A stretch of DNA of 64,000 nt, taken from IMG/VR virus record IMGVR_UViG_2935124990_000001, positions 27,888-91,887 of that record, one strand, 5' to 3'. The position numbers and the translations under genes are program-made. Positions 4,176 through 59,296 of this stretch are shown here, one piece after another (position 1 is the stretch's first letter; each line of letters begins with the position of its first letter). This DNA comes from a virus. Its lineage: Duplodnaviria; Caudoviricetes. The notes beneath the pieces are model-generated. The model searched no databases and was not told the origin of the DNA. It worked only from the letters and a program-made list of their open reading frames with translations.

Positions 4176-4679
4176 CTACTCGGGGTCGGACTGTTCCGTG
4201 AAGTTGTCGATGAGCCAGGACCGCAGAACCTGCGACGTGATCGGAGCCCAGTCCAGCTCCCCGTCCGCCAGCAGCTTCTGCCCGTACTCGTCGACCCGGC
4301 GGCGCAGATCTGCGTTCACCCGGATGTTCAGGTTCGCGACCGGGCCTTCGTGCTCGCCGCGGACGGGGCGCAGCGGCGTGTACTCGTCGGCGAGGAACGC
4401 GTTCAGCGCGGCCGCCGCCTCCGCAGGGAGGGACGTGCCCTTCTGCTGCACCGTGGTCTTGATCTCGTCGCGCAGGGCGCTGGGCATGCGGACCGCGAGG
4501 TTCGGGCTCTCCTGCTCCAGGTCCTTCCACCGCAGCCGGCTGACGAAGCGGGCCCCTTCGTCGGTGAGGACGAAGTCGACGGTGTCGGACAGCTCTGTGG
4601 GGGCGCCCGAACTCCTCAGGTGTGCGGAGGCCTTCTTGAGCAGGTCGACGCGGTGCTGGTCCTGGCGGCTGAGTGCCAC
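4176..4679 (-). CDS. Tandem ribbon-helix-helix DNA-binding protein
   Basis: Two RHH-like units NLAVRMPSALRDEIK and NLNIRVNADLRRRVDE; GAGG RBS before GTG 4679. Confidence 0.65.
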   Translation of the reverse strand: MALSRQDQHRVDLLKKASAHLRSSGAPTELSDTVDFVLTDEGARFVSRLRWKDLEQESPNLAVRMPSALRDEIKTTVQQKGTSLPAEAAAALNAFLADEYTPLRPVRGEHEGPVANLNIRVNADLRRRVDEYGQKLLADGELDWAPITSQVLRSWLIDNFTEQSDPE

Positions 4680-4768
4680 GGGGCGGGGTCCTCTCGGCGG
4701 GCGCCGCCCGTGCCGAGGGTGGCCGGGCGGGCGTGCATGGGCGTGTACCACGTCATCGTCCTCCATTT

Positions 4769-4787
4769 CGTATTGCTACGCCATGCC
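4769..4787 (-). promoter_or_regulatory. Operator copy 1 over leftward promoter (-35 TGGCGT, 17 bp, -10 GACGAT)
   Basis: CGTATTGC-TAC-GCCATGCC; matches the palindrome at 55793. Confidence 0.55.
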
Positions 4788-4846: not shown

Positions 4847-4865
4847 CGTATTGCATTGCAATGCG
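4847..4865 (+). promoter_or_regulatory. Operator copy 2 over rightward promoter (-35 TTGCAT, 17 bp, CATTGT)
   Basis: CGTATTGC-ATT-GCAATGCG; one mismatch from the perfect palindrome. Confidence 0.7.
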
Positions 4866-4910: not shown

Positions 4911-5357
4911 ATGCGACACACCAACCAGCAGACCAGCACCAAGACCCTCGCCGACCTCTACCGCGCCCTGGACCGCGCTAACGCCGTGACCATCACCTAC
5001 CTCAAGCCCGGCGAGACCGAGCCCACTGTGAGGACCATCGAGATCACCGAACTCCGCACCACCAGCGTGCGCATCCGCAAGGACGGCGCCGTCAAGGGCG
5101 GCGGCATCATCGTCATCGCCATGTGCCGGCTTCGGGGAGAAGCCCGGGAATTCCACCTGTCGGGCATTCTCAGCTACACCGTCCACCGCATGGCCTACGT
5201 CCTGGACCGCCCGACCCCCACCAAGTACGTCCGGCCCACCCCCGCGCCCGTCTCCGACGCGCAGGCCCTGTTCTTCTACGAGCTGGCCCGCGACCAGGAC
5301 GACGCCGACTACACCCCGCGCACCCTGATCCCGTCCGACACCAGCCTCGCCGCCTAA
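4911..5357 (+). CDS. Stand-alone WYL-domain protein
   Basis: AVTITYLKPGETEPTVRTIE...AMCRLRGEAREFHLSGI matches the WYL pattern; no HTH. Confidence 0.75.
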   Translation: MRHTNQQTSTKTLADLYRALDRANAVTITYLKPGETEPTVRTIEITELRTTSVRIRKDGAVKGGGIIVIAMCRLRGEAREFHLSGILSYTVHRMAYVLDRPTPTKYVRPTPAPVSDAQALFFYELARDQDDADYTPRTLIPSDTSLAA

Positions 5358-6707: not shown

Positions 6708-7853
6708 TCACACGCCCGCAGGCGGCCCGTCCAGCGGCACCACCGTCACCGACCGGCGAACCTGCTCCATCCGCACCGGCAACGGCTCCCACCCCCGCGA
6801 CCCCGCCATCACCCAGTTCAAGGCCGCAATGCCCTTCGTGTACGACCGGCGCAACCCATCCGGCAACAACCGCACCCCCGCCGGGCCCGCCTTCGACGCC
6901 TGCAACGTCACCCACAACCCCCGCCGCGACCCCGTCAACGGCAGGTCCTCGACCACCTGCTCCCGCACCTCCAGCCAGCGGCGCACCGCCACCCGCGACC
7001 CCTCCCGCAGCGCATACCACTCCACCTCCGGTGCCGGCCCCAACTCCTCAACCGCCGCCAGCACCCGCTGCCTCGTCGCCTCCGACCGGGCCTCCAAGCG
7101 CCCGCCGAGCACCGCCTTCACCGACTCCGGATGCACCTCGGCGAGGGCGGCGATCTCCTCCACCCGGTTCGCCGGCCCCTTCTGCTGCCGCCGCCGCACC
7201 CCCACCGCCGACAAGTCCTCCGCCAGGTCGTCCACGTTCACCGAAGCCAGCTCACCCGACCTCGGCCCCGCATCCAGCACCACCGCCACCATCGCCAACA
7301 GCCGGGCACGCTGCTCGAACGACATGCCCACACCATCCCGCGACAACGGGCCCCGGGCGGCCAGGTCCACCATCCCCCGGTACAGCGCCTCCAACGACCG
7401 GGCCTCGACCATCGGCTTCAACTCGGGCTGCGGCAGCACCGGCAACACCAACCCCACCCCAGGGGCTACCACCGGGCCGAGCAGGGCCACACAGTCCAGG
7501 AACACCCGCTGCGACGCCAACGGCACAGCCCGGCCCCGGTCCTCCGCCCGGTAACGCAACTCCCCGGCCGCCACCAGGTCGAACACCGCCCCCAACACCT
7601 CCGGGGCGAACAGCCGGCCCGCCGACCGCAACACCCGCCCGCCGGCCACCTCCGGGCGGCCCACCGCACGGTCGAACATCCCCACCACCGCCCACAACTG
7701 GTGGGCCCGCTGCTGTGACACCTGCACCGGAACACCACCAGCCCCCGGCACCCGCAACCGCCCCTCCCACCGGCCGGCATCACGCGGCGCGACCCGCTCC
7801 ACCACCGCGGCGAGCTGCCGCACCGCCGGGGAACCGTACTGCCTGGGCGTCAC
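6708..7853 (-). CDS. Tyrosine-recombinase-like protein lacking the catalytic C-terminus, with an inserted LacI-like HTH
   Basis: RARLLAMVAVVLDAGPRSGEL box I; ends shortly after MEQVRRS with no Tyr; insert EEIAALAEVHPESVKAVLGG...SEATRQRVLAAVEELG. Confidence 0.75.
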   Translation of the reverse strand: MTPRQYGSPAVRQLAAVVERVAPRDAGRWEGRLRVPGAGGVPVQVSQQRAHQLWAVVGMFDRAVGRPEVAGGRVLRSAGRLFAPEVLGAVFDLVAAGELRYRAEDRGRAVPLASQRVFLDCVALLGPVVAPGVGLVLPVLPQPELKPMVEARSLEALYRGMVDLAARGPLSRDGVGMSFEQRARLLAMVAVVLDAGPRSGELASVNVDDLAEDLSAVGVRRRQQKGPANRVEEIAALAEVHPESVKAVLGGRLEARSEATRQRVLAAVEELGPAPEVEWYALREGSRVAVRRWLEVREQVVEDLPLTGSRRGLWVTLQASKAGPAGVRLLPDGLRRSYTKGIAALNWVMAGSRGWEPLPVRMEQVRRSVTVVPLDGPPAGV

Positions 7854-8998
7854 GAGGGCTCCTCAGTCCGGGCGGCCGCCTTCTTCGCGATCTGAGACAG
7901 CGGGTTGCGGTCCCCGGTGCTGTCCTCCTCGTCGATGTACCCAATCAGGGCCTTCGATCGGTCGTCCCACCCGCCGTGCCGGCCGATGTCGACGATGTCC
8001 ACCCCCGCCGCCCGGGCGCTTTTGACCAGGCCGCGGCGCAGCGAGTGCGACGTCCACTTCCCTGGCAGGCCGGTGCGGTGGATGGAGCGGCTGACGATGT
8101 CGGAGGCCCCGTTGATGCTGATCCGCCCGTCTGGGTCCCCGATCGGCTCGCCCTTGCGGGTCATCTCGGCGCCCATGTATCCCCACTGGTCGATCCGCAT
8201 GAACAGCGGCCCCTTCGTGTGCCCTTCGTGTGCGAGGGCGTCCACCAGGTCCCGTACAGCGGTGACGGTACACAGAGCCGGGTCCGGGTCGGGCTGCACT
8301 TCGACGTTCTGCCACTTCTTCCGCTTCTTGCGGTACACCCGCACGGTGAACCCGCCTTCGGGCAGGTCGGTGAAGCTGCCCGGCCAGTTCAGGGGGGCGA
8401 GTTCGCTGCCTCGGGAGGCGATGGCGTGCCCGAGGAGCATGAGGGCGGCGTCCCGTTTCCCGACGAGGGTGTTCCGGTCGAGGTGGGAGAGGGCTTCTGC
8501 GAGGACGGCACGGTCGGCGGCCGCCGCCTTGCGCGGGGTCGCGGCCGGGTCCTGGGCCTCGGACAGCTCCCGCCGGTACCCGGCGACGACCTTGCGGGCC
8601 CCCATGGTGTCCGGCGGCTTGAACCCGGCGGCCCGGTGGGAGGAGCGAATCGACGCGATGATCCGGTCCATCGACGCCGGACCGTACGGCCGCCCGGTTC
8701 GCTTCCGGGGGGTGCGCTTCAGGTACGACAGGTACGCGGTGACGGTCTGCGGGGCAGCAGGGAGGACCCGGCGGCCGACCGTGTCGCACCAGGCGGCGAA
8801 CTGCTTCATGTCGCCGTCGTACGCGTCGCTGGTGTCCTTCGGGATGCCCGCCCGGACGTCCGCCTCGGCCTCTGGCGGCAGCCACGCGTCGGGGTCCTCC
8901 TCGGCCAGCGGAACAGCCGGGGCCCGGTCCTCCGGGATCGCGGGGAGCAGGCCCTCCTCGACCAACTCCCCGTCCACCACGCCGTCGCGCTCGCTCAC
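7850..8998 (-). CDS. Cre-like tyrosine recombinase (resolvase/integrase)
   Basis: RDAALMLLGHAIASRGSEL, KKRK, HSLRRG, GGW and GYID give an intact R-K-H-R-W-Y set. Confidence 0.9.
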   Translation of the reverse strand: MSERDGVVDGELVEEGLLPAIPEDRAPAVPLAEEDPDAWLPPEAEADVRAGIPKDTSDAYDGDMKQFAAWCDTVGRRVLPAAPQTVTAYLSYLKRTPRKRTGRPYGPASMDRIIASIRSSHRAAGFKPPDTMGARKVVAGYRRELSEAQDPAATPRKAAAADRAVLAEALSHLDRNTLVGKRDAALMLLGHAIASRGSELAPLNWPGSFTDLPEGGFTVRVYRKKRKKWQNVEVQPDPDPALCTVTAVRDLVDALAHEGHTKGPLFMRIDQWGYMGAEMTRKGEPIGDPDGRISINGASDIVSRSIHRTGLPGKWTSHSLRRGLVKSARAAGVDIVDIGRHGGWDDRSKALIGYIDEEDSTGDRNPLSQIAKKAAARTEEPS

Positions 8999-9246
8999 GG
9001 CCCGGTCACCTCAGCGATCCAACGCCGCAGTGCGCCCACCTCGTCCGGGGATGCGTGCTCCTGGGCGTACTTCATGACGACCGCGTACAGCGCTCCTTCG
9101 AGGTGTTGACGTTCCTCGAACTGCCGGAGGACAGCTCTGGAGAAGTCCCCAATGCTGGAGTCGCCCCGCTCATCTGCGCTGGCAGCCGCGTCATGGAAGG
9201 CCGCCGTTACCAGGAGGTGCGCAGTCGCCTCATCATCCGGGCTCAC
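8995..9246 (-). CDS. Hypothetical protein
   Basis: GTGA overlaps on both sides; from VSPDDEATAH. Confidence 0.55.
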   Translation of the reverse strand: MSPDDEATAHLLVTAAFHDAAASADERGDSSIGDFSRAVLRQFEERQHLEGALYAVVMKYAQEHASPDEVGALRRWIAEVTGP

Positions 9247-9746
9247 GGCCGCCACCCTTCCTGGTAGTCCTGGTGGTCCGCGTACGGCACGGCCAGGGCG
9301 CACAGGGTCGGGCACGGCATCTCCGGCCAGTCGGCGTCGGTCGTATTCGCGTCGCACGCATGGCACACCTCCACCGGATCGGCGGGGGAACCGTCCTGGT
9401 GAACCAGAGTCGTTGTCCGTACCGCGCGGTGCAGGACGACGACGCGGCGCTTCGCTGCGACCTCGGCAAGCACGCGAGCCGGATCGTGGAGGGCGATGTG
9501 CAGTGCATCCTCTGTCGACTCGAAGACGGATGCCTCCCCGCCCCAGCGTCCACCCCCGACCACAGTGCTGCCGTCGGCGCCGTAGATCGCCTCAGCGAAT
9601 CCCTTGTTGTCCACTCTCCACGGACCATCGGTGGCTGCCCGCGCGGCCCTCTCCTCTTCGTCCAGCCTGGCCGACAGGAACGCCGCCACACCACTCTGTG
9701 CGGACGCTTTCCACGCTCTCCATGCCGCTTCGCTCTGTGGCTCCAT
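9243..9746 (-). CDS. DUF6221-like protein
   Basis: AFLSARLDEEE...HIALHDPARVLAEVAAKRRVV...LAVPYADHQDYQEGWRP. Confidence 0.75.
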   Translation of the reverse strand: MEPQSEAAWRAWKASAQSGVAAFLSARLDEEERAARAATDGPWRVDNKGFAEAIYGADGSTVVGGGRWGGEASVFESTEDALHIALHDPARVLAEVAAKRRVVVLHRAVRTTTLVHQDGSPADPVEVCHACDANTTDADWPEMPCPTLCALAVPYADHQDYQEGWRP

Positions 9747-9766
9747 AGAAGGAACATTATCTGGAG
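9741..9766. other. Candidate tyrosine-recombinase site (dif-like, 6-bp spacer)
   Basis: CTCCATAGAA-GGAACA-TTATCTGGAG; arms 8/10 inverted. Confidence 0.45.
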
Positions 9767-9808
9767 TGATGCACGCCGATGCCTCCGCCAAGCCGTTCTG
9801 CGGCAGCG

Positions 9809-10027
9809 CTACACCTTGATCGAGTGGCGCACGGGAGACCAGCGGGCGGGGAGCTGCACATCGCAGTCCGGGCATAGGTGCGCGACCAACTCGCCGACGG
9901 GCTGGGCGTGTACGGGTACAGCCCCAGGGTGTGCGCAGCCGAAGCCCTCCGCGCGAGCGGCCTGGGCCAGTCGATCTCCGAGCGCACGCCAGGCGTCACG
10001 CTCTCTTCGGACAGCCCGCCGGATCAT
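9809..10027 (-). CDS. Small zinc-binding hypothetical protein
   Basis: GGAGG RBS; CAH...LCPDC. Confidence 0.55.
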   Translation of the reverse strand: MIRRAVRRERDAWRALGDRLAQAARAEGFGCAHPGAVPVHAQPVGELVAHLCPDCDVQLPARWSPVRHSIKV

Positions 10028-10046
10028 GAGCGCCTCCTGGTAGCTG

Positions 10047-10077
10047 CACCTCGGGTAAGGAGAGGTTATCCGAGGTG
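10047..10077. other. Candidate lox/dif-like recombination site
   Basis: CACCTCGGGTAA-GGAGAGG-TTATCCGAGGTG; 12-bp arms with one mismatch and an asymmetric spacer. Confidence 0.55.
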
Positions 10078-10576: not shown

Positions 10577-11476
10577 TCAGCGAGAGCGAGGAAAGCGGAA
10601 CCCGCCTTCCCGGAGAACGCGCCGGAGGGTCGGGTCGGTGATGCCGTACGCCTTGGTCAGATCGGTCAGCTTCTCGCCAGACTTGGCCCTCTCAAGGATT
10701 TCGCGCTCCGGCAGGTCCTTCCGAGGAGCACCCTGTCCACGGAGCGCCACGCCTGCGTCTTGCAGCACCTTGGAGATGGTGCGCCATGCCATGCCGTTCT
10801 GACGCGCGAGCTCCTGGATGCCAACCCCGCCCTCGTAAGCGGCAATGATCTCGGCGTTTGACTGGCGCGCCTTCTGGTGTGAGTCCGGACCCCGGACCCC
10901 TCGAACGGCATCCTTCATGACGCCTTGTGACACGCTGAACCGCTTGGCCAGTTCAGGGGTGCTGACGCCTTGCCCGCGCAGCCTCCGGGCTTCCTCTTTC
11001 TGCTCGTCGCTGAGCGCAGGGGCATACCCGGTCGACCTCATCTCCACGCCCTGCTCGGCAAGTACGCGCCTGATTGGACCATCGGAGACGCCGTAGGTGG
11101 CGGCGAGCGCGCGGATGGTCTCGCCCGAGCGGTAAGCGGCAGCGATCTCTTCCGCTGGCAGGTCCAGCGGCGGTTGCTTGGCGGGCCGCCTCTCGACCCC
11201 CGCGTCTACCAGAATCCGGCGGATCTTCGTCGTGTCGACGCCGTAAGCCTCGGCAAGCTCAATGATGGTCTGCCCGCCTCGGTACTTCTCGACCACTTCC
11301 CCGGATTCCGCGAACGGCTTCCAAGGGCCTCGTGGCCGTCGTTCCTCCGCAGGAACGGCCTTGAGGACAGTCGGGCGGGAAACGCCGTACCGCTCGGCGA
11401 TCACGGCAGTTTTGACCCCATCGGCATACAGGGCGCGGATCTCCTTGACCTGCTCATCAGTAAGCGCTCGCGGCAT
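10577..11476 (-). CDS. Protein made of six tandem HTH domains
   Basis: Six repeats of Y..G.T...LA..YGVS...I...L; start taken at MPRAL. Confidence 0.8.
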   Translation of the reverse strand: MPRALTDEQVKEIRALYADGVKTAVIAERYGVSRPTVLKAVPAEERRPRGPWKPFAESGEVVEKYRGGQTIIELAEAYGVDTTKIRRILVDAGVERRPAKQPPLDLPAEEIAAAYRSGETIRALAATYGVSDGPIRRVLAEQGVEMRSTGYAPALSDEQKEEARRLRGQGVSTPELAKRFSVSQGVMKDAVRGVRGPDSHQKARQSNAEIIAAYEGGVGIQELARQNGMAWRTISKVLQDAGVALRGQGAPRKDLPEREILERAKSGEKLTDLTKAYGITDPTLRRVLREGGFRFPRSR

Positions 11477-11554
11477 CACACCGTGCCTCACCCTCTGCTT
11501 ATCGTCGGTCTTTATAGTATAGAGGGTGAATTAACAAACTTTCCGTCGCCAGCC

Positions 11555-53209: not shown

Positions 53210-54310
53210 ATGCCGCAGGCTGAGGAGCTCAACGAGCACGGCGGCATTACGCGCGCCAAAGCGCCGGTCAGCGGCGTATCCGTCCCCGCCCACATGGGCG
53301 TGGGCGCCGACCTTGTGGACGGCATCGACTACGTGGTGCTGCTCCAGGTCCTCTTCGACGTCGCCTCCGGGATGGACGTCACCCCGTTGAAGGTGTGGGA
53401 GCGGCTGAAGGAGCGCGGGATCCGGTCGACGAAGAACCGGGAGGAGCTCGTCGGCAAGAACTCGGTGTACGAGTCGTTCACCCGGATCATCGCGGCCGGC
53501 TACTTGCTGCGGGTTGAGCTGCCGAACGAGAAGCACCCGGGCCGTAAGGGACGAATCGCGTACAAGCTGTACGACAACCCGGCGTGGAACCCCGAGTGGC
53601 AGGCGCGCCAGGTGGGCAGCGACCCTCTCGAGCCCTCAGAAAAGCAGCAGGTCAGAACACGTTCCGGAACCAGGGAACTGGTGGATGGGGAAGTTGGCGT
53701 TTCGCGGAAAACCGCAGGTCAGAATGGTTCCCGGAACCAGGGATCTGGTGACACCGGTTCCCCAGTTCCGGGACGTGGTGGAAGGCGTGTTCCCGCAGGT
53801 CAGAATGCTTCCCCGGTTCCGGGACGCGTTGAGCCGTCCCCCCCACACCCCCCGGAGGAGGTAACTACCTCCTCCCCCAACCCCCTCACCGGCACCAGCG
53901 GCCCCGGGGCGCTGCCGCCACAGACGGAGGGGGAGGAGGCTGGCTACACCCACGAAGACCTCCAGGCCGCCGCCGACGTGTTGCAGCTGCTGCCCGAGCC
54001 GTGGACGCAGGGCAAGCTGAACGCGGGCAAGCTCGCCCCAAAGCTCCTGACCGTGATGGCCGAGCAGGGCTGGCCCGGCATCCACGAGGTGAACCGCCAG
54101 GTTCTGGTCCGTCAGCTGACGAAGAACCCGCACAAGGTGACGAACCCTTACCGGCTGCTCGCGAGCGACCGGGTACCGAACCTGCCGCGGTACGAGGTCG
54201 TTGCCGCGGCCCCCAAGACCGACTCCAGCGGCTCCGCAGTGGAGATGTGCCCGAAGCACCCGACGTTCCGCGCCGGGTTCCGCTGCATTCCCTGCTGCAT
54301 GCCTGAGTGA
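53210..54310 (+). CDS. Replication initiator (wHTH N-terminus, iteron-encoded linker, C-terminal Cys/His motif)
   Basis: GKNSVYESFTRIIAAGYLLR..YKLYDNP; internal repeats; directly before helicase. Confidence 0.72.
   Translation: MPQAEELNEHGGITRAKAPVSGVSVPAHMGVGADLVDGIDYVVLLQVLFDVASGMDVTPLKVWERLKERGIRSTKNREELVGKNSVYESFTRIIAAGYLLRVELPNEKHPGRKGRIAYKLYDNPAWNPEWQARQVGSDPLEPSEKQQVRTRSGTRELVDGEVGVSRKTAGQNGSRNQGSGDTGSPVPGRGGRRVPAGQNASPVPGRVEPSPPHPPEEVTTSSPNPLTGTSGPGALPPQTEGEEAGYTHEDLQAAADVLQLLPEPWTQGKLNAGKLAPKLLTVMAEQGWPGIHEVNRQVLVRQLTKNPHKVTNPYRLLASDRVPNLPRYEVVAAAPKTDSSGSAVEMCPKHPTFRAGFRCIPCCMPE
53647..53826. repeat. Iteron-like repeats; candidate replication origin
   Basis: GCAGGTCAGAA x3 (53647, 53714, 53795); CCGGAACCAGGGA x2; inverted TTCCCCRGTTCCGGGACG x2. 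Confidence 0.7.
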
Positions 54311-54387
54311 CCGAACAAGGCGGGCCGGACCGTTGCTGCGGTCCGGCCCGTATCCCCTGCCCGACGCACCGAACAGGAGACCCTCCA

Positions 54388-55782
54388 GTGTCAACCACCC
54401 AGCACTTCCCCGCCCCACGCCCCGCCGCCGGCCCCGACGACTCCGACTGGAACGAAAACGGCCCAGCGGGCGCCGGGCTGCTCCGCAGGCCCCCGCACAG
54501 CCTGGAGGCCGAACAAGCCCTCCTGGGCGCTCTCATGACCAGCACAGGCCACGCAGGGCGGTACTTCGCCGAAGTCCTCGAGACCGGCATCACCGACACC
54601 GACTACTACCGTCCCGCCCACGCCACGATCCACCGGGCGATCCTGGCCCTCCACAAGGCCGGTGAGCCCGTCGAACCGCTCGCCGTCGCCCAAGAACTCA
54701 CCCGCCGCGGCGACCTCACCAAGGCCGGCGGGGCCGTCTACCTCCACACCTGCATCCAAGCCGTCCCCACCGCGGCAAACGGGTCCTACTACGCCGAAAT
54801 CGTCCGGGCAAAGGCATACCGACGGGCGGCAATCGAAGCCGCGGAGCAGATCATCCAGTACGCCTACAGCGAGGAAGGCAGCGAGGAGGACGTCCGCAGC
54901 CTCGTCGAGCAGAAGCTCACCGACATCATCACCGGCGTCCCCGGCATCAACGAGGCCCCGCCCACCGTCGGCGACCTCTACCTCGACTTCGTCGCCGAAC
55001 TCGAAGAAATCCAGAACGGCAGGCAGCTCGGGCTCCCGTACGGAATCGCCGACCTCGACACCGTCACCGCCGGCATGAAGCCCGGCAACGTCACCGTCAT
55101 CGCCGCCCAGTCCGGCGTCGGCAAGTCCACCCTCGCCCTGAACGCCGCCGTGCACGCCGCGAAGGCCGGCGCCCAGGTGATGTTCTCGTCGCTCGAGATG
55201 AGCAGCACCGAACTCATGCAGAAGATCGTGGCCGCCGAGGGGAACCTCGCCATGCACCACCTCACCCGCGAAGGCGGCCTCACCGCCGACGGGTGGGCAG
55301 AAGTGAACCGCCTCGGCCCGGCCCTGTTTCAGGCGCTCCCCCTGCGCGTCTACCGGCCCGACGGAGCAGCCCTCCGCGACATCGAGTCCGCCGCCCGGTC
55401 CTGTGTCCGCGCCAGCGGCCTCGACGTCCTCGTTGTCGACTACATCCAGCTCGTCGAGATCGAGCAGACCCGCAACAGCAACCGGGAACAGGCCGTCGCC
55501 GCCGTCTCCCGCGGCCTCAAGAACCTGTCTGTGCAGCTCGGCTGCCACGTCATCGCGCTCTCCCAGCTCAACGACGACGGCATGATGCGCGAGTCCAGGG
55601 CCATCAAGAACGACGCCTCCGTCGTCATCAAGGTGGAGCGCCCGGACATGGAGGAGCCGGAGTCGGCGCGCGCCGGCGAAGTGGACCTGGTGATCGAGAA
55701 GAACCGGTTCGGGCCGCGGGCCACGGTGACGGCTGCCGCGCAGCTGCACTACAGCCGGTTCGTCGACATGAACCGGACCTAG
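54388..55782 (+). CDS. dnaB: DnaB-like replicative helicase
   Basis: PPHSLEAEQALLG, AAQSGVGKST, FSSLEMS, VVDYIQL, LSQLN, KNRFGP; AGGAG RBS. Confidence 0.93.
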   Translation: MSTTQHFPAPRPAAGPDDSDWNENGPAGAGLLRRPPHSLEAEQALLGALMTSTGHAGRYFAEVLETGITDTDYYRPAHATIHRAILALHKAGEPVEPLAVAQELTRRGDLTKAGGAVYLHTCIQAVPTAANGSYYAEIVRAKAYRRAAIEAAEQIIQYAYSEEGSEEDVRSLVEQKLTDIITGVPGINEAPPTVGDLYLDFVAELEEIQNGRQLGLPYGIADLDTVTAGMKPGNVTVIAAQSGVGKSTLALNAAVHAAKAGAQVMFSSLEMSSTELMQKIVAAEGNLAMHHLTREGGLTADGWAEVNRLGPALFQALPLRVYRPDGAALRDIESAARSCVRASGLDVLVVDYIQLVEIEQTRNSNREQAVAAVSRGLKNLSVQLGCHVIALSQLNDDGMMRESRAIKNDASVVIKVERPDMEEPESARAGEVDLVIEKNRFGPRATVTAAAQLHYSRFVDMNRT

Positions 55783-55792
55783 AACCTCGAAA

Positions 55793-55825
55793 CGTATTGC
55801 TTAGCAATACGAGAATGGGTATGTT
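55793..55825 (+). promoter_or_regulatory. Operator copy 3 (perfect palindrome) over promoter TTGCTT-17-TATGTT
   Basis: CGTATTGC-TTA-GCAATACG at 55793-55811. Confidence 0.75.
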
Positions 55826-59263: not shown

Positions 59264-59296
59264 CGCATGGCTATGCAATACGTTTCGCGGTATCAT
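59264..59296 (+). promoter_or_regulatory. Operator copy 4 over promoter TGGCTA-17-TATCAT
   Basis: CGCATGGC-TAT-GCAATACG at 59264-59282. Confidence 0.68.

Follow-up and report, generated by a model that had tools for sequence, protein, structure and literature searches.

The window analysed here, a 64,000-nucleotide stretch of a 91.9-kb pZL12-like phage-plasmid of Streptomyces, carries on its minus strand a gene (6708..7853(-), stop codon included) for a nucleophile-less protein of 381 aa with the tyrosine-recombinase fold, which we call TGT. The 381-codon frame is open, as the original prediction had it, and the gene is real since its GC3 is 0.93, it has 204 homologs and its dN/dS is 0.20–0.26. 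The GTG start codon of TGT and the TGA stop codon of an intact tyrosine integrase of 382 aa ('type A', 7850..8998(-)) overlap: the TCAC at 7850..7853 reads GTGA on the minus strand, in agreement with the translational coupling that had been proposed for the two genes. R196, K225/K227, H318, R321, H341, W344 and Y354 of this integrase are invariant in 24 aligned sequences. Another GTGA overlap (8995-8998(-)) couples the integrase start to a small conserved ORF of about 83 aa (8995..9246(-)), which is 80–89% identical upstream of the integrases at four other loci (L007, L010, L024 and L032) and is the first gene of a swappable integrase module. The end of a convergent gene lies only 6 nt past the TGT stop, so that no remnant of a Tyr-bearing end follows. 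According to the annotated S. californicus plasmid and ZL12, TGT follows the lysis genes and the integrase and precedes the divergent early region; it belongs to the core genes of the pZL12-type phage-plasmids.

The AF2 model of TGT alone is confident (pLDDT 91.9, pTM 0.82) and has the two-domain fold of tyrosine recombinases. Foldseek matched it to XerA and XerH with a probability of 1.00, and VIA-align placed residues from about 8 to 374 on XerA, XerH, Cre and Tn1549 Int with Z scores of 11–13 (XerA: Z 13.1, rmsd 13.9, 232 aligned residues; XerH: Z 12.3, rmsd 4.3, 255 aligned residues; Cre: Z about 12). The N-terminal helical core-binding-like domain (residues 8–145, 7419..7832(-), helices at 9–129 of the model) can be aligned from model residue 8–16 onward to the corresponding domains of XerH, Cre and XerA. 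It is followed by the first half of the catalytic-type domain (residues 146–226, 7176..7418(-)), which holds box I and strand β2, and, after an inserted domain, by the second half (residues 277–381, 6711..7025(-)). When searched against PDB sequences the family profile found XerA (E 1.3e-6) and XerD (E 1.3e-4) over box I and the β-hairpin; the C-terminal third used as a profile against the same sequences gave chance matches only (E>1) and no recombinase. TGT has no match to PF00589 at E≤1, and its remote relatives match this profile weakly and only up to positions 58–125 of 172. PADLOC assigned no defence family to TGT, and the ESM Atlas places it in a cluster of its own, in unnamed actinobacterial clusters and in integrase clusters. 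None of the database labels, which are hypothetical protein, LacI regulator and integrase, fits this protein.

The box I arginine previously pointed out in the motif GPRSGEL (residues 196–202, 7248-7268(-)) is R198, which like G200 and E201 is invariant in all 121 aligned sequences. Strand β2 contains the sequence RRRQQK, and the basic character of K225 is kept in the family (K in 73 and R in 42 of 121 sequences); this residue lies near the GKGNK of XerD in the HMM alignment. The EQVR motif (residues 363–366, 6756-6767(-)), part of a PLPxRMEQVRR sequence followed by a tail of 15 residues, had been assigned to the HxxR position. R366 and E363 are each present in 119 of 121 sequences, so that the Arg of HxxR is kept and the first His is replaced by Glu. 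The assignment rests on the ends of several structural alignments, the last aligned pairs being TGT 370 with Cre 296 and TGT 370 with XerH 316. In the residue numbering of Cre and XerH, R366 would lie opposite Cre R292 and E363 opposite H289, a mapping that we infer because the alignment ranges give only the first and last aligned residues. The early end of the protein was correctly recognised, although it comes 15 residues after R366 and not about 13, and, as had been seen, there is no second His/Trp and no Tyr; the C-terminal helices are absent as well. TGT thus shares with XerA, XerD, XerH, Cre and lambda Int (PF00589) the fold of both domains, the Arg-x-x-Glu of box I, the second Arg and, probably, a basic residue at the position of the hairpin Lys, but differs from these canonical enzymes by the His-I to Glu replacement, the missing His/Trp, Tyr and C-terminal helices, and an HTH of 45 residues in the hairpin.

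The β2–β3 hairpin of recombinases normally reaches the scissile phosphate. In TGT it is interrupted right after K225, between strands 216–220 and 277–281, by 45 residues that form a LacI-type helix-turn-helix headpiece (residues 227–276, 7026..7175(-)). The sequence IAALAEVHPESVKAVL...RQRVLAAVEELG (residues 234–272) matches the Pfam LacI family with E=0.0015 and 18.7 bits, a score under the 27-bit cut-off, and residues 227–273 of the AF2 model superpose on the headpieces of PurR, CelR and CcpA with an rmsd of 1.3–1.8 Å over 43–46 residues (30–40% identity, Z 7.3–7.6). The suggestion that an insert of about 45 aa resembling the LacI headpiece follows the Lys loop is therefore well founded. In contrast to the LacI/GalR proteins (PF00356), the HTH of TGT is internal to another fold instead of N-terminal, and neither Pfam nor the model contains a PBP-like effector or dimerisation core, the remainder of the protein being recombinase fold. 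Among the matches listed, all 120 TGT homologs possess the LacI-type HTH (17 of them with a precomputed PF00356 match); among 71 full-length representatives at a greater distance, 66 lack it. DNA-binding modules have been added repeatedly in this family, namely the LacI HTH, an HTH_7-like tail in P0128 and Cys-rich tails.

The family comprises the 204 close homologs and, beyond these, 111 representatives of clusters formed at 50% identity; matches at E≤1e-8 occur in 30 of the 151 Streptomyces species whose genomes were sampled. All 120 close homologs among the matches listed measure 320–401 aa and end at the same place as TGT; the truncation is thus shared, and no full-length close homolog with a Tyr was found. 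The C-terminus of the integrase (H341-W344-Y354 region) was aligned by none of 231 family proteins (best domain E 19), 147 of 169 motif-bearing proteins end less than 30 residues past ExxRR, and the longer tails of the other 22 are additions of unrelated origin. Tyr, Ser, Thr, His and Cys are all missing from the columns that are at least 90% conserved in a 62-sequence alignment. The dN/dS of TGT is 0.20 relative to L004 and 0.26 relative to ZL12, and values of 0.20–0.26, indicating purifying selection, were obtained in each part of the gene that was analysed, namely the N-domain, the catalytic halves, the HTH and the C-terminal tail. Values of 0.42–0.68 for pairs at 55–65% identity were set aside because base composition constrains the synonymous sites, which are close to saturation in these pairs. 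Given the common ends, the lack of a His/Trp-Tyr end in all 231 proteins and the low dN/dS, the nucleophile region must have been lost long ago and throughout the family, and not by recent decay; the conserved ends and the selection on the gene also uphold the earlier opinion that it is retained and not debris.

The loss of the Tyr-bearing part together with the gain of an HTH makes it most likely that TGT binds DNA as a regulator rather than recombining it. Our best explanation, which we consider to have about an even chance of being correct, is that TGT may be a non-catalytic protein, exapted from a tyrosine recombinase, which binds specific DNA sites and serves the lysogeny/maintenance module as a regulator or in an architectural role, comparable to MrpR and SroF. 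We infer the DNA binding, the regulatory role and the existence of target sites; among the roles listed in the original prediction, repression is the one that we favour. TGT would clamp duplex DNA in the manner of a recombinase, its helical N-domain and its catalytic-type domain lying on opposite faces, while R198, E201, K/R225 and R366 would grip backbone phosphates. The LacI-type HTH, carried by the hairpin that in recombinases extends into the DNA where cleavage takes place, could add base-specific contacts. Lacking the Tyr, the His/Trp and the last helices, TGT would form no covalent intermediate, and the C-terminal helix that recombinases swap for building a tetramer is missing too. It would probably regulate the module in this way, by maintaining the plasmid-prophage state or by controlling the recombination module, whichever recombinase adjoins.

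A catalytically dead recombinase fold reused as a DNA binder is known from yeast Ndc10. Among temperate phages, MrpR (YopR) of the Bacillus phage SPbeta is described as a master repressor with a tyrosine-recombinase fold and no recombinase activity (PMC10516654), and SroF of phi3T as binding DNA via an integrase-like fold (bioRxiv 10.1101/2025.11.27.690993); both use the two-domain fold as TGT is proposed to do, for DNA binding without recombination. The TGT model aligns with SroF (chain 9rgl_A) with Z 10.7 and an rmsd of 11.3 over 215 residues. MrpR and SroF are absent from the 28 PDB sequences found with the family profile at E≤10, and no sequence relationship was detected. According to the MrpR report, this protein has kept its Tyr (Y304) and lost arginines and a histidine (PMC10516654), whereas TGT keeps both arginines and E201, lacks the His/Trp-Tyr end and has the inserted LacI-type HTH. 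Since TGT retains both catalytic arginines and MrpR, on that account, lost its own, the pocket of TGT may do more than bind. Host phylum and phage type differ as well, and TGT looks like an independent exaptation. Dead recombinase folds serving as DNA binders are known as a few isolated cases (MrpR/SroF, TnsF, Ndc10); TGT represents a large uncharacterised actinobacterial family with an anatomy that differs from these cases, since the nucleophile end is removed, both arginines remain and the hairpin of one clade holds a LacI headpiece.

The original prediction saw in TGT an accessory subunit of the adjacent recombinase. As an accessory or regulatory subunit it would bind a half-site or arm-site, contribute to site selection or directionality, or restrict the integrase to a single pair of strand exchanges; in an extreme form its R-E-K-R pocket would be offered to a Tyr in trans, as in Flp. 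We regard such a role as possible but doubtful. A same-strand integrase lies upstream of TGT at 21 of 35 genome loci (33 assessable), in a locus set biased to the HTH-bearing clade, and also in ZL12, pCQ4 and the S. californicus plasmid. Together with the coupling observed here this would also fit a joint function of TGT and the integrase, as would the retention of R198, E201 and R366. A precedent for a recombinase-derived target selector beside a tyrosine recombinase or transposase is provided by TnsF of Tn6022, which is inactivated, and by its active relative in Tsy, whose gene neighbours that of a bona fide tyrosine recombinase (PMC10293859). Like TnsF, which recognises a DNA site on a mobile element, TGT is recombinase-derived and without the Tyr chamber, a likeness by description; but TnsF, which works for the Tn7 machinery, possesses zinc fingers at its N-terminus as well as tandem CB-like domains (PMC10293859), and Tn7 genes are absent beside TGT.

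However, the partner of TGT is not constant. Three integrase types with no more than 30% identity fill the upstream slot, a serine recombinase occupies it in front of an HTH-less TGT relative (L077), and the upstream region is integrase-less at 12 of the 33 assessable loci. In the S. californicus plasmid the integrase ahead of a 97%-identical TGT shares just 28% identity with that of the window; the DNA homology begins abruptly at position 7845, eight bases inside TGT, and the mosaic junction thus falls at the start of the gene. An EndoVII-like gene separates integrase and TGT in phage ZL12, and homing-endonuclease-like or other ORFs do so in pCQ4 and NBC_01321. Elsewhere GTGA coupling recurs at a few of the type-A loci alone (L006 and L024), and is shared by some homologs without being general. 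The upstream integrase is a swappable module. Alignment of the TGT family with the neighbouring integrase by hhalign was weak (E 0.076 for the single sequence, 0.037 for the alignment) and covered only the N-domain to box I, which shows that TGT is not a recent paralog or duplicate of its neighbour, and TGT lacks the C-terminal helices used in recombinase-recombinase contacts. Hence the accessory-subunit proposal stands in that the gene is retained and selected, and is not supported as to a dedicated subunit of an integrase that is swappable and often absent.

An unexpected observation was made at loci without an integrase, where TGT relatives adjoin complete Streptomyces telomere palindrome arrays. 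At 10 of 13 integrase-less HTH-bearing loci TGT is located about 20–250 bp from a complete archetypal array, always in one orientation, and at five of these ten direct repeats of TAAATAAC(A/G)TGA(C/T)C bracket the TGT gene. In other Streptomyces genomes the same first palindrome of the array is located 1–140 nt from the end of a contig or of the chromosome. Adjacency to tRNA genes was also considered as a pattern at the integrase-less loci and discarded, with two tRNAs in 14 loci. The gene of the protelomerase TelN of phage-plasmid N15 adjoins its target telRL, and protelomerases use a catalytic Tyr to convert an inverted-repeat site into hairpin ends. The integrase-less TGT relatives, and only these, resemble TelN-telRL in that a recombinase-related gene abuts a telomere-forming sequence. 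Unlike the protelomerases (TelN, TelK, ResT), TGT has no Tyr, the array of its relatives is one-sided with palindromes of the protein-capped type, and the element of the window contains none.

These observations bear on the unlikely alternative that TGT is a replicon-maintenance or replicon-end factor that would mark a site for machinery of the host or the element, be it for multimer resolution by host recombinases, for partition or at a telomere-adjacent junction, and would have no part in transcription. Long-form relatives in operons of the order parA, small protein, TGT-like gene (L074 and L076) also speak in its favour, but this par-linked sample amounts to two. Against it, the element of the window has no telomere-type hairpin array and, at up to three mismatches, no match to the AT-rich motif GTAAATAACRTGAYCC, it encodes canonical ParA/ParB elsewhere, and none of ten true telomere-proximal stretches of 5.5–8 kb encodes a family member. 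The link of TGT relatives to internal copies of Streptomyces telomeres is directly testable. Quite improbable in our estimation is the idea that the whole family are 'half recombinases', in which the clamp and the R-E-K/R-R pocket would present one site to a nucleophile or machinery acting in trans. The Tyr would then come from the adjacent recombinase, or, for the integrase-less relatives, the partner would be the machinery that forms or caps the ends of linear Streptomyces replicons; this would explain together the kept arginines, the stubborn adjacency to unrelated recombinases and the telomere abutment with its 14-bp direct repeat. That TGT is a functionless, decaying integrase remnant is hardly credible: the missing nucleophile, the failure to reach PF00589 and three loci with only N-terminal fragments (L036, L038 and L037, the last cut by a contig end) would suit a remnant, but the 204 homologs of conserved length and ends, the low dN/dS in all four regions, the GC3, the confident fold and the newly gained domain do not.

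The titles and abstract beginnings of the literature on pZL12, Streptomyces phage-plasmids and integrase-like immunity repressors hold no description of the TGT family. Lysogeny control of the pZL12 type is undescribed as far as this literature goes, and a target of TGT would open the system. A search for operators identified no binding site for TGT. The palindrome TATTGC-N3-4-GCAATA was considered as its operator and rejected: around TGT in the integrase-less loci there were zero or one chance-like matches, and since the TGT of these loci has a recognition helix nearly identical to that of the window, the palindrome is not tied to TGT. It follows the switch region of the phage-plasmid beside the WYL gene. 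Within the window it occurs at 4769, 4847, 55793 and 59264, four sites against 0.06 expected, and related loci contain 26 TTGC-N3-4-GCAA sites against 5.8 in shuffled sequences. No other repeated operator on the element is as clear; it lies 1.8 kb from TGT, adjoining the WYL-domain gene, and other candidate regulators on the element include, besides this WYL protein, a GntR protein and several HTH proteins.

TGT, a nucleophile-less protein of the tyrosine recombinase fold, is encoded on the minus strand by an open frame of 381 codons with a GTG start (6708..7853). This start and the TGA stop of the intact tyrosine integrase gene (7850..8998, minus, 382 aa) share four bases (GTGA), so that both the open frame and the coupling of the original prediction stand. 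The motifs it had quoted lie at residues 196-202 (GPRSGEL), 234-272 (the HTH-like stretch) and 363-366 (EQVR), and the C-terminus comes 15 residues past R366. In the integrase R196, K225/K227, H318, R321, H341, W344 and Y354 are invariant among 24 aligned homologs. A convergent gene terminates 6 nt past the TGT stop, and no remnant of a recombinase end is present in any of the three frames downstream of it.

An AlphaFold2 model of TGT with an input alignment of 62 sequences (pLDDT 91.9, pTM 0.82) matches two-domain tyrosine recombinases over residues ~8-374 in structural alignments with XerA (Z 13.1, rmsd 13.9, 232 aligned), XerH (Z 12.3, rmsd 4.3, 255 aligned), many Cre entries (Z ~12) and Tn1549 Int (Z 11.4); Foldseek concurs. 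In sequence searches XerA (E 1.3e-6) and XerD (1.3e-4) match the family profile over a span made up of box I and the next beta hairpin. The last aligned model residue in several structural alignments is 370, opposite Cre 296 and XerH 316. With the catalytic residue numbers that we take to be those of Cre and XerH, these ends of the alignment ranges, as distinct from a residue-by-residue superposition, would place R366 opposite the second catalytic arginine and E363 opposite His-I. The model continues past helix 362-367 only as an extended tail, and the helices bearing His/Trp and Tyr in recombinases are absent, in agreement with the residues originally reported missing. The seven core residues of tyrosine recombinases, as given in PMC10516654, are R, D/E, K, H, R, H/W and Y; TGT has R198, E201, K/R at 225 and R366 and is without the other three.

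The LacI-like insert proposed from the sequence also models as an HTH. Residues 227-273 sit between strands 216-220 and 277-281 and fit onto the PurR, CelR and CcpA DNA-binding headpieces with an rmsd of 1.3-1.8 Å over 43-46 residues (30-40% identity); the Pfam LacI match to TGT is under the cut-off (E 0.0015). On the simplest reading, a LacI-type HTH placed in the hairpin that reaches DNA at the cleavage site in recombinases would provide added sequence recognition.

A word-indexed search returned 204 TGT homologs. The 120 listed among them are 320-401 aa long, and nearly all that are named come from Streptomyces, one being named only 'Actinomycetota bacterium'; when aligned they show almost no variation in the C-terminal block G354-W355-x-P357-x-P359-x-x-M-E363-Q364-x-R366-R367 and have a common end point. 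An exhaustive search of representatives found 111 further clusters. The motif ExxRR, a pattern of our own, occurs in 169 of 231 family proteins, and 147 of these end fewer than 30 residues past it, while the 22 longer tails are unrelated extensions (Cys-rich tails, a helical domain of ~100 residues, an IS-related fusion, an HTH_7-like tail). When the 231 were compared with the neighbouring integrase family, no protein aligned to its H-W-Y end, the sole alignment reaching there having a domain E of 19, and the truncation is thus a trait of the family. All 120 listed close homologs have the HTH insert, as against 5 of the 71 full-length representatives that are more distant; by parsimony, the nucleophile would have been lost earlier and one clade would have acquired the HTH afterwards.

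A DNA-binding protein that would no longer recombine is indicated by the fold, by a loss of the nucleophile end that is complete and ancient, by the lack of any conserved substitute nucleophile, by DNA-binding add-ons gained repeatedly and by the fact that TGT is not tied to any one recombinase. A regulatory or architectural role in a lysogeny/maintenance module has, in our estimate, about an even chance of being correct. The closest functional analogues are MrpR and SroF, integrase-fold repressors of SPbeta-like phages, which arrived there from the other direction, having kept the tyrosine and lost the arginines whereas TGT lost the tyrosine and kept the arginines; a search of PDB sequences with the family profile (E<=10) revealed no sequence similarity between them and the TGT family.

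The genomic setting is that of a phage-plasmid. The source virus record, of which the window is part, measures 91,887 bp and has direct terminal repeats, and TGT shares 87% identity with Streptomyces phage ZL12 gp034 (NC_013420, 90,435-bp record) and 97% with a protein of an 85-kb S. californicus plasmid. Contigs of 85-100 kb are the source of many homologs, and the 57 PLSDB plasmids that encode a relative are all from Streptomyces. Annotated relatives have a phage-plasmid gene order, in which terminase, capsid, tail and lysis genes are followed by integrase and TGT, a short convergent gene set and a divergent early region that includes methylase and RecT-like genes; encoded elsewhere are ParA/ParB, WhiB, SSB, DnaB and a conjugation-type ATPase. 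Given this layout and the separate ParA/ParB, TGT belongs to the lysogeny/maintenance module rather than being the partition protein of the window's element. Three 32-nt direct repeats (53645-53824, spacing 67 and 81, with GGTTCC/GGAACC dyads) inside or beside a 427-aa ORF, upstream of a DnaB-like helicase gene (54307..55782), are iteron-like and may mark the replication origin. A 16-nt string comprising ribosome-binding site and ATG, GGAGACCGCAGCATGA, is identical at three gene starts, at 841-856 and at two sites outside the window.

A palindrome, CGTATTGC-N3-GCAATACG and variants, also occurs six times in the element, twice outside the window and four times within it (4769-4787, 4847-4865, 55793-55811 and 59264-59282), against 0.06 expected there. 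The copies have a conserved flank (..GAATGGGTAtgGTGG). Those at 4769 and 4847, spaced 78 bp, occupy the interval separating the divergent early operon (4176..4766, minus) from a WYL-domain gene (~4911..5357, plus), and TATTGC-N4-GCAATA pairs occur at the same place and spacing in related phage-plasmids. The palindrome is very probably the operator of the genetic switch. It cannot be attributed to TGT, since it was not found in integrase-less TGT loci despite near-identical HTH recognition helices.

A true accessory role in recombination, as originally proposed, appears to us unlikely. It draws on the retained arginines, on the GTGA overlap and on persistent synteny with recombinases: among 35 loci from species-representative genomes, a sample skewed to the HTH-bearing clade, a same-strand tyrosine integrase lies upstream of TGT in 21, three of which (L036, L038 and L037, the last cut by a contig end) have N-terminal TGT fragments only. 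The remaining 14 have none, or 12 of 33 if L016 and L023, too short upstream, are left aside, and Pfam found no integrase in the best upstream ORF of the 10 integrase-less loci checked. The partner is moreover interchangeable. At least three integrase types are found upstream: that of the window, one sharing 25-30% identity with it, and that of pCQ4, which an iterated search started with the window's integrase did not recover. An integrase 28% identical to the window's precedes a 97%-identical TGT and one 82% identical precedes a 59%-identical TGT, so that TGT similarity does not follow integrase type. DNA homology to the S. californicus plasmid starts at 7845 and covers the TGT gene, that to ZL12 starts at 7852, and the integrase, a small ORF and sequence to ~10048 (7854-10048) are a mosaic replacement relative to both, with a GC3 of 0.69-0.76 against 0.93 in TGT. 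That small ORF (8995-9246, minus, ~83 aa), coupled to the integrase gene by a second GTGA (8995-8998), is 80-89% identical in L007, L010, L024 and L032, upstream of integrases 30-82% identical to the window's; it has no family match beyond a chance-level YbaB and may encode an excisionase or regulator. Upstream of the integrase module, a 304-aa protein (10577-11491, minus) has several tandem HTH units (HTH_58, HTH_7, HTH_23 and others).

Just upstream of TGT lie an endonuclease gene in ZL12 and in a 155-kb plasmid, and a 220-aa ORF in pCQ4. EndoVII/HNH-type genes situated precisely between the position of the integrase and TGT (L001 7430-7981, ZL12 gp035; L003 3631-3981) suggest homing-type insertions at this junction. 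The HTH-less relatives (~305 aa, on 49-61 kb contigs) also vary in their upstream neighbour, which in L079 and L083 is a tyrosine integrase of yet another type and in L077 a serine recombinase (Resolvase and Recombinase domains); in L078 and L080 an integrase lies 2-4 kb off on the opposite strand. A long-form TGT-like gene is third in an operon after parA and a small ORF (L074 6608-9740; L076 5520-8261), and these long forms (~430 aa) have an extra C-terminal helical domain ending ..AGWEPxLLxAxD. TGT accompanies site-specific recombination or maintenance modules and no particular enzyme.

A role in replicon maintenance or in marking end-related sites, which we consider quite improbable, is raised by the integrase-less HTH-bearing loci. 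There TGT is flanked by ordinary metabolic and transport genes, with a D5-type primase gene beside it in at least two (L014, L021). In 10 of 13 (L013, L014, L018-L023, L025, L039) an array of 2-6 hairpins lies ~20-250 bp away, upstream in five and downstream in five, with 6-9 bp stems and a TCC loop closed by C and G, the TCC always on the TGT coding strand. The first hairpin, GTCTGCTCCGCAGAC, is present in 11 of 151 Streptomyces genomes; 12 of its 15 occurrences are no more than ~150 nt from where a contig ends, and one 7.57-Mb contig and one 57.7-kb contig have it at both ends. Since the palindrome series that follows it is the same at true ends (L102-L111, L115) as beside TGT, the TGT-adjacent arrays are complete telomere-type sequences, internal to the contig as assembled and continuous on the outer side with other DNA, at junctions that may be biological or a product of assembly. 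The second telomere palindrome was detected in only one or two copies per genome with such an array, the TGT-adjacent copy among them. In five loci a 14-bp AT-rich direct repeat, TAAATAAC(A/G)TGA(C/T)C, stands on both sides of TGT (L014 4937, 6142; L022 4916, 6140; L023 313, 1534; L025 4908, 6101; L039 4872, 6089); its downstream copy includes the TGT stop codon and lies ~5 nt (L025, L039) or ~60 nt (L014) before the first telomere base. Single copies lie upstream of TGT in L013, L018-L021 and L026, and 3-4 kb upstream in the phage-plasmid loci L006, L008 and L032. Against an end-related role, the hairpin array is found in no phage-plasmid locus nor in the window's genome, the repeat is absent from the window, and the 10 true end-proximal stretches examined (5.5-8 kb each) contain no gene of the family.

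That TGT is mere debris, which the original prediction had already rejected, is hardly credible given dN/dS values of 0.20 and 0.26 (relative to the S. californicus plasmid copy and to ZL12, respectively) and similar values (0.17-0.38) across the N-domain, the catalytic halves, the HTH and the tail.
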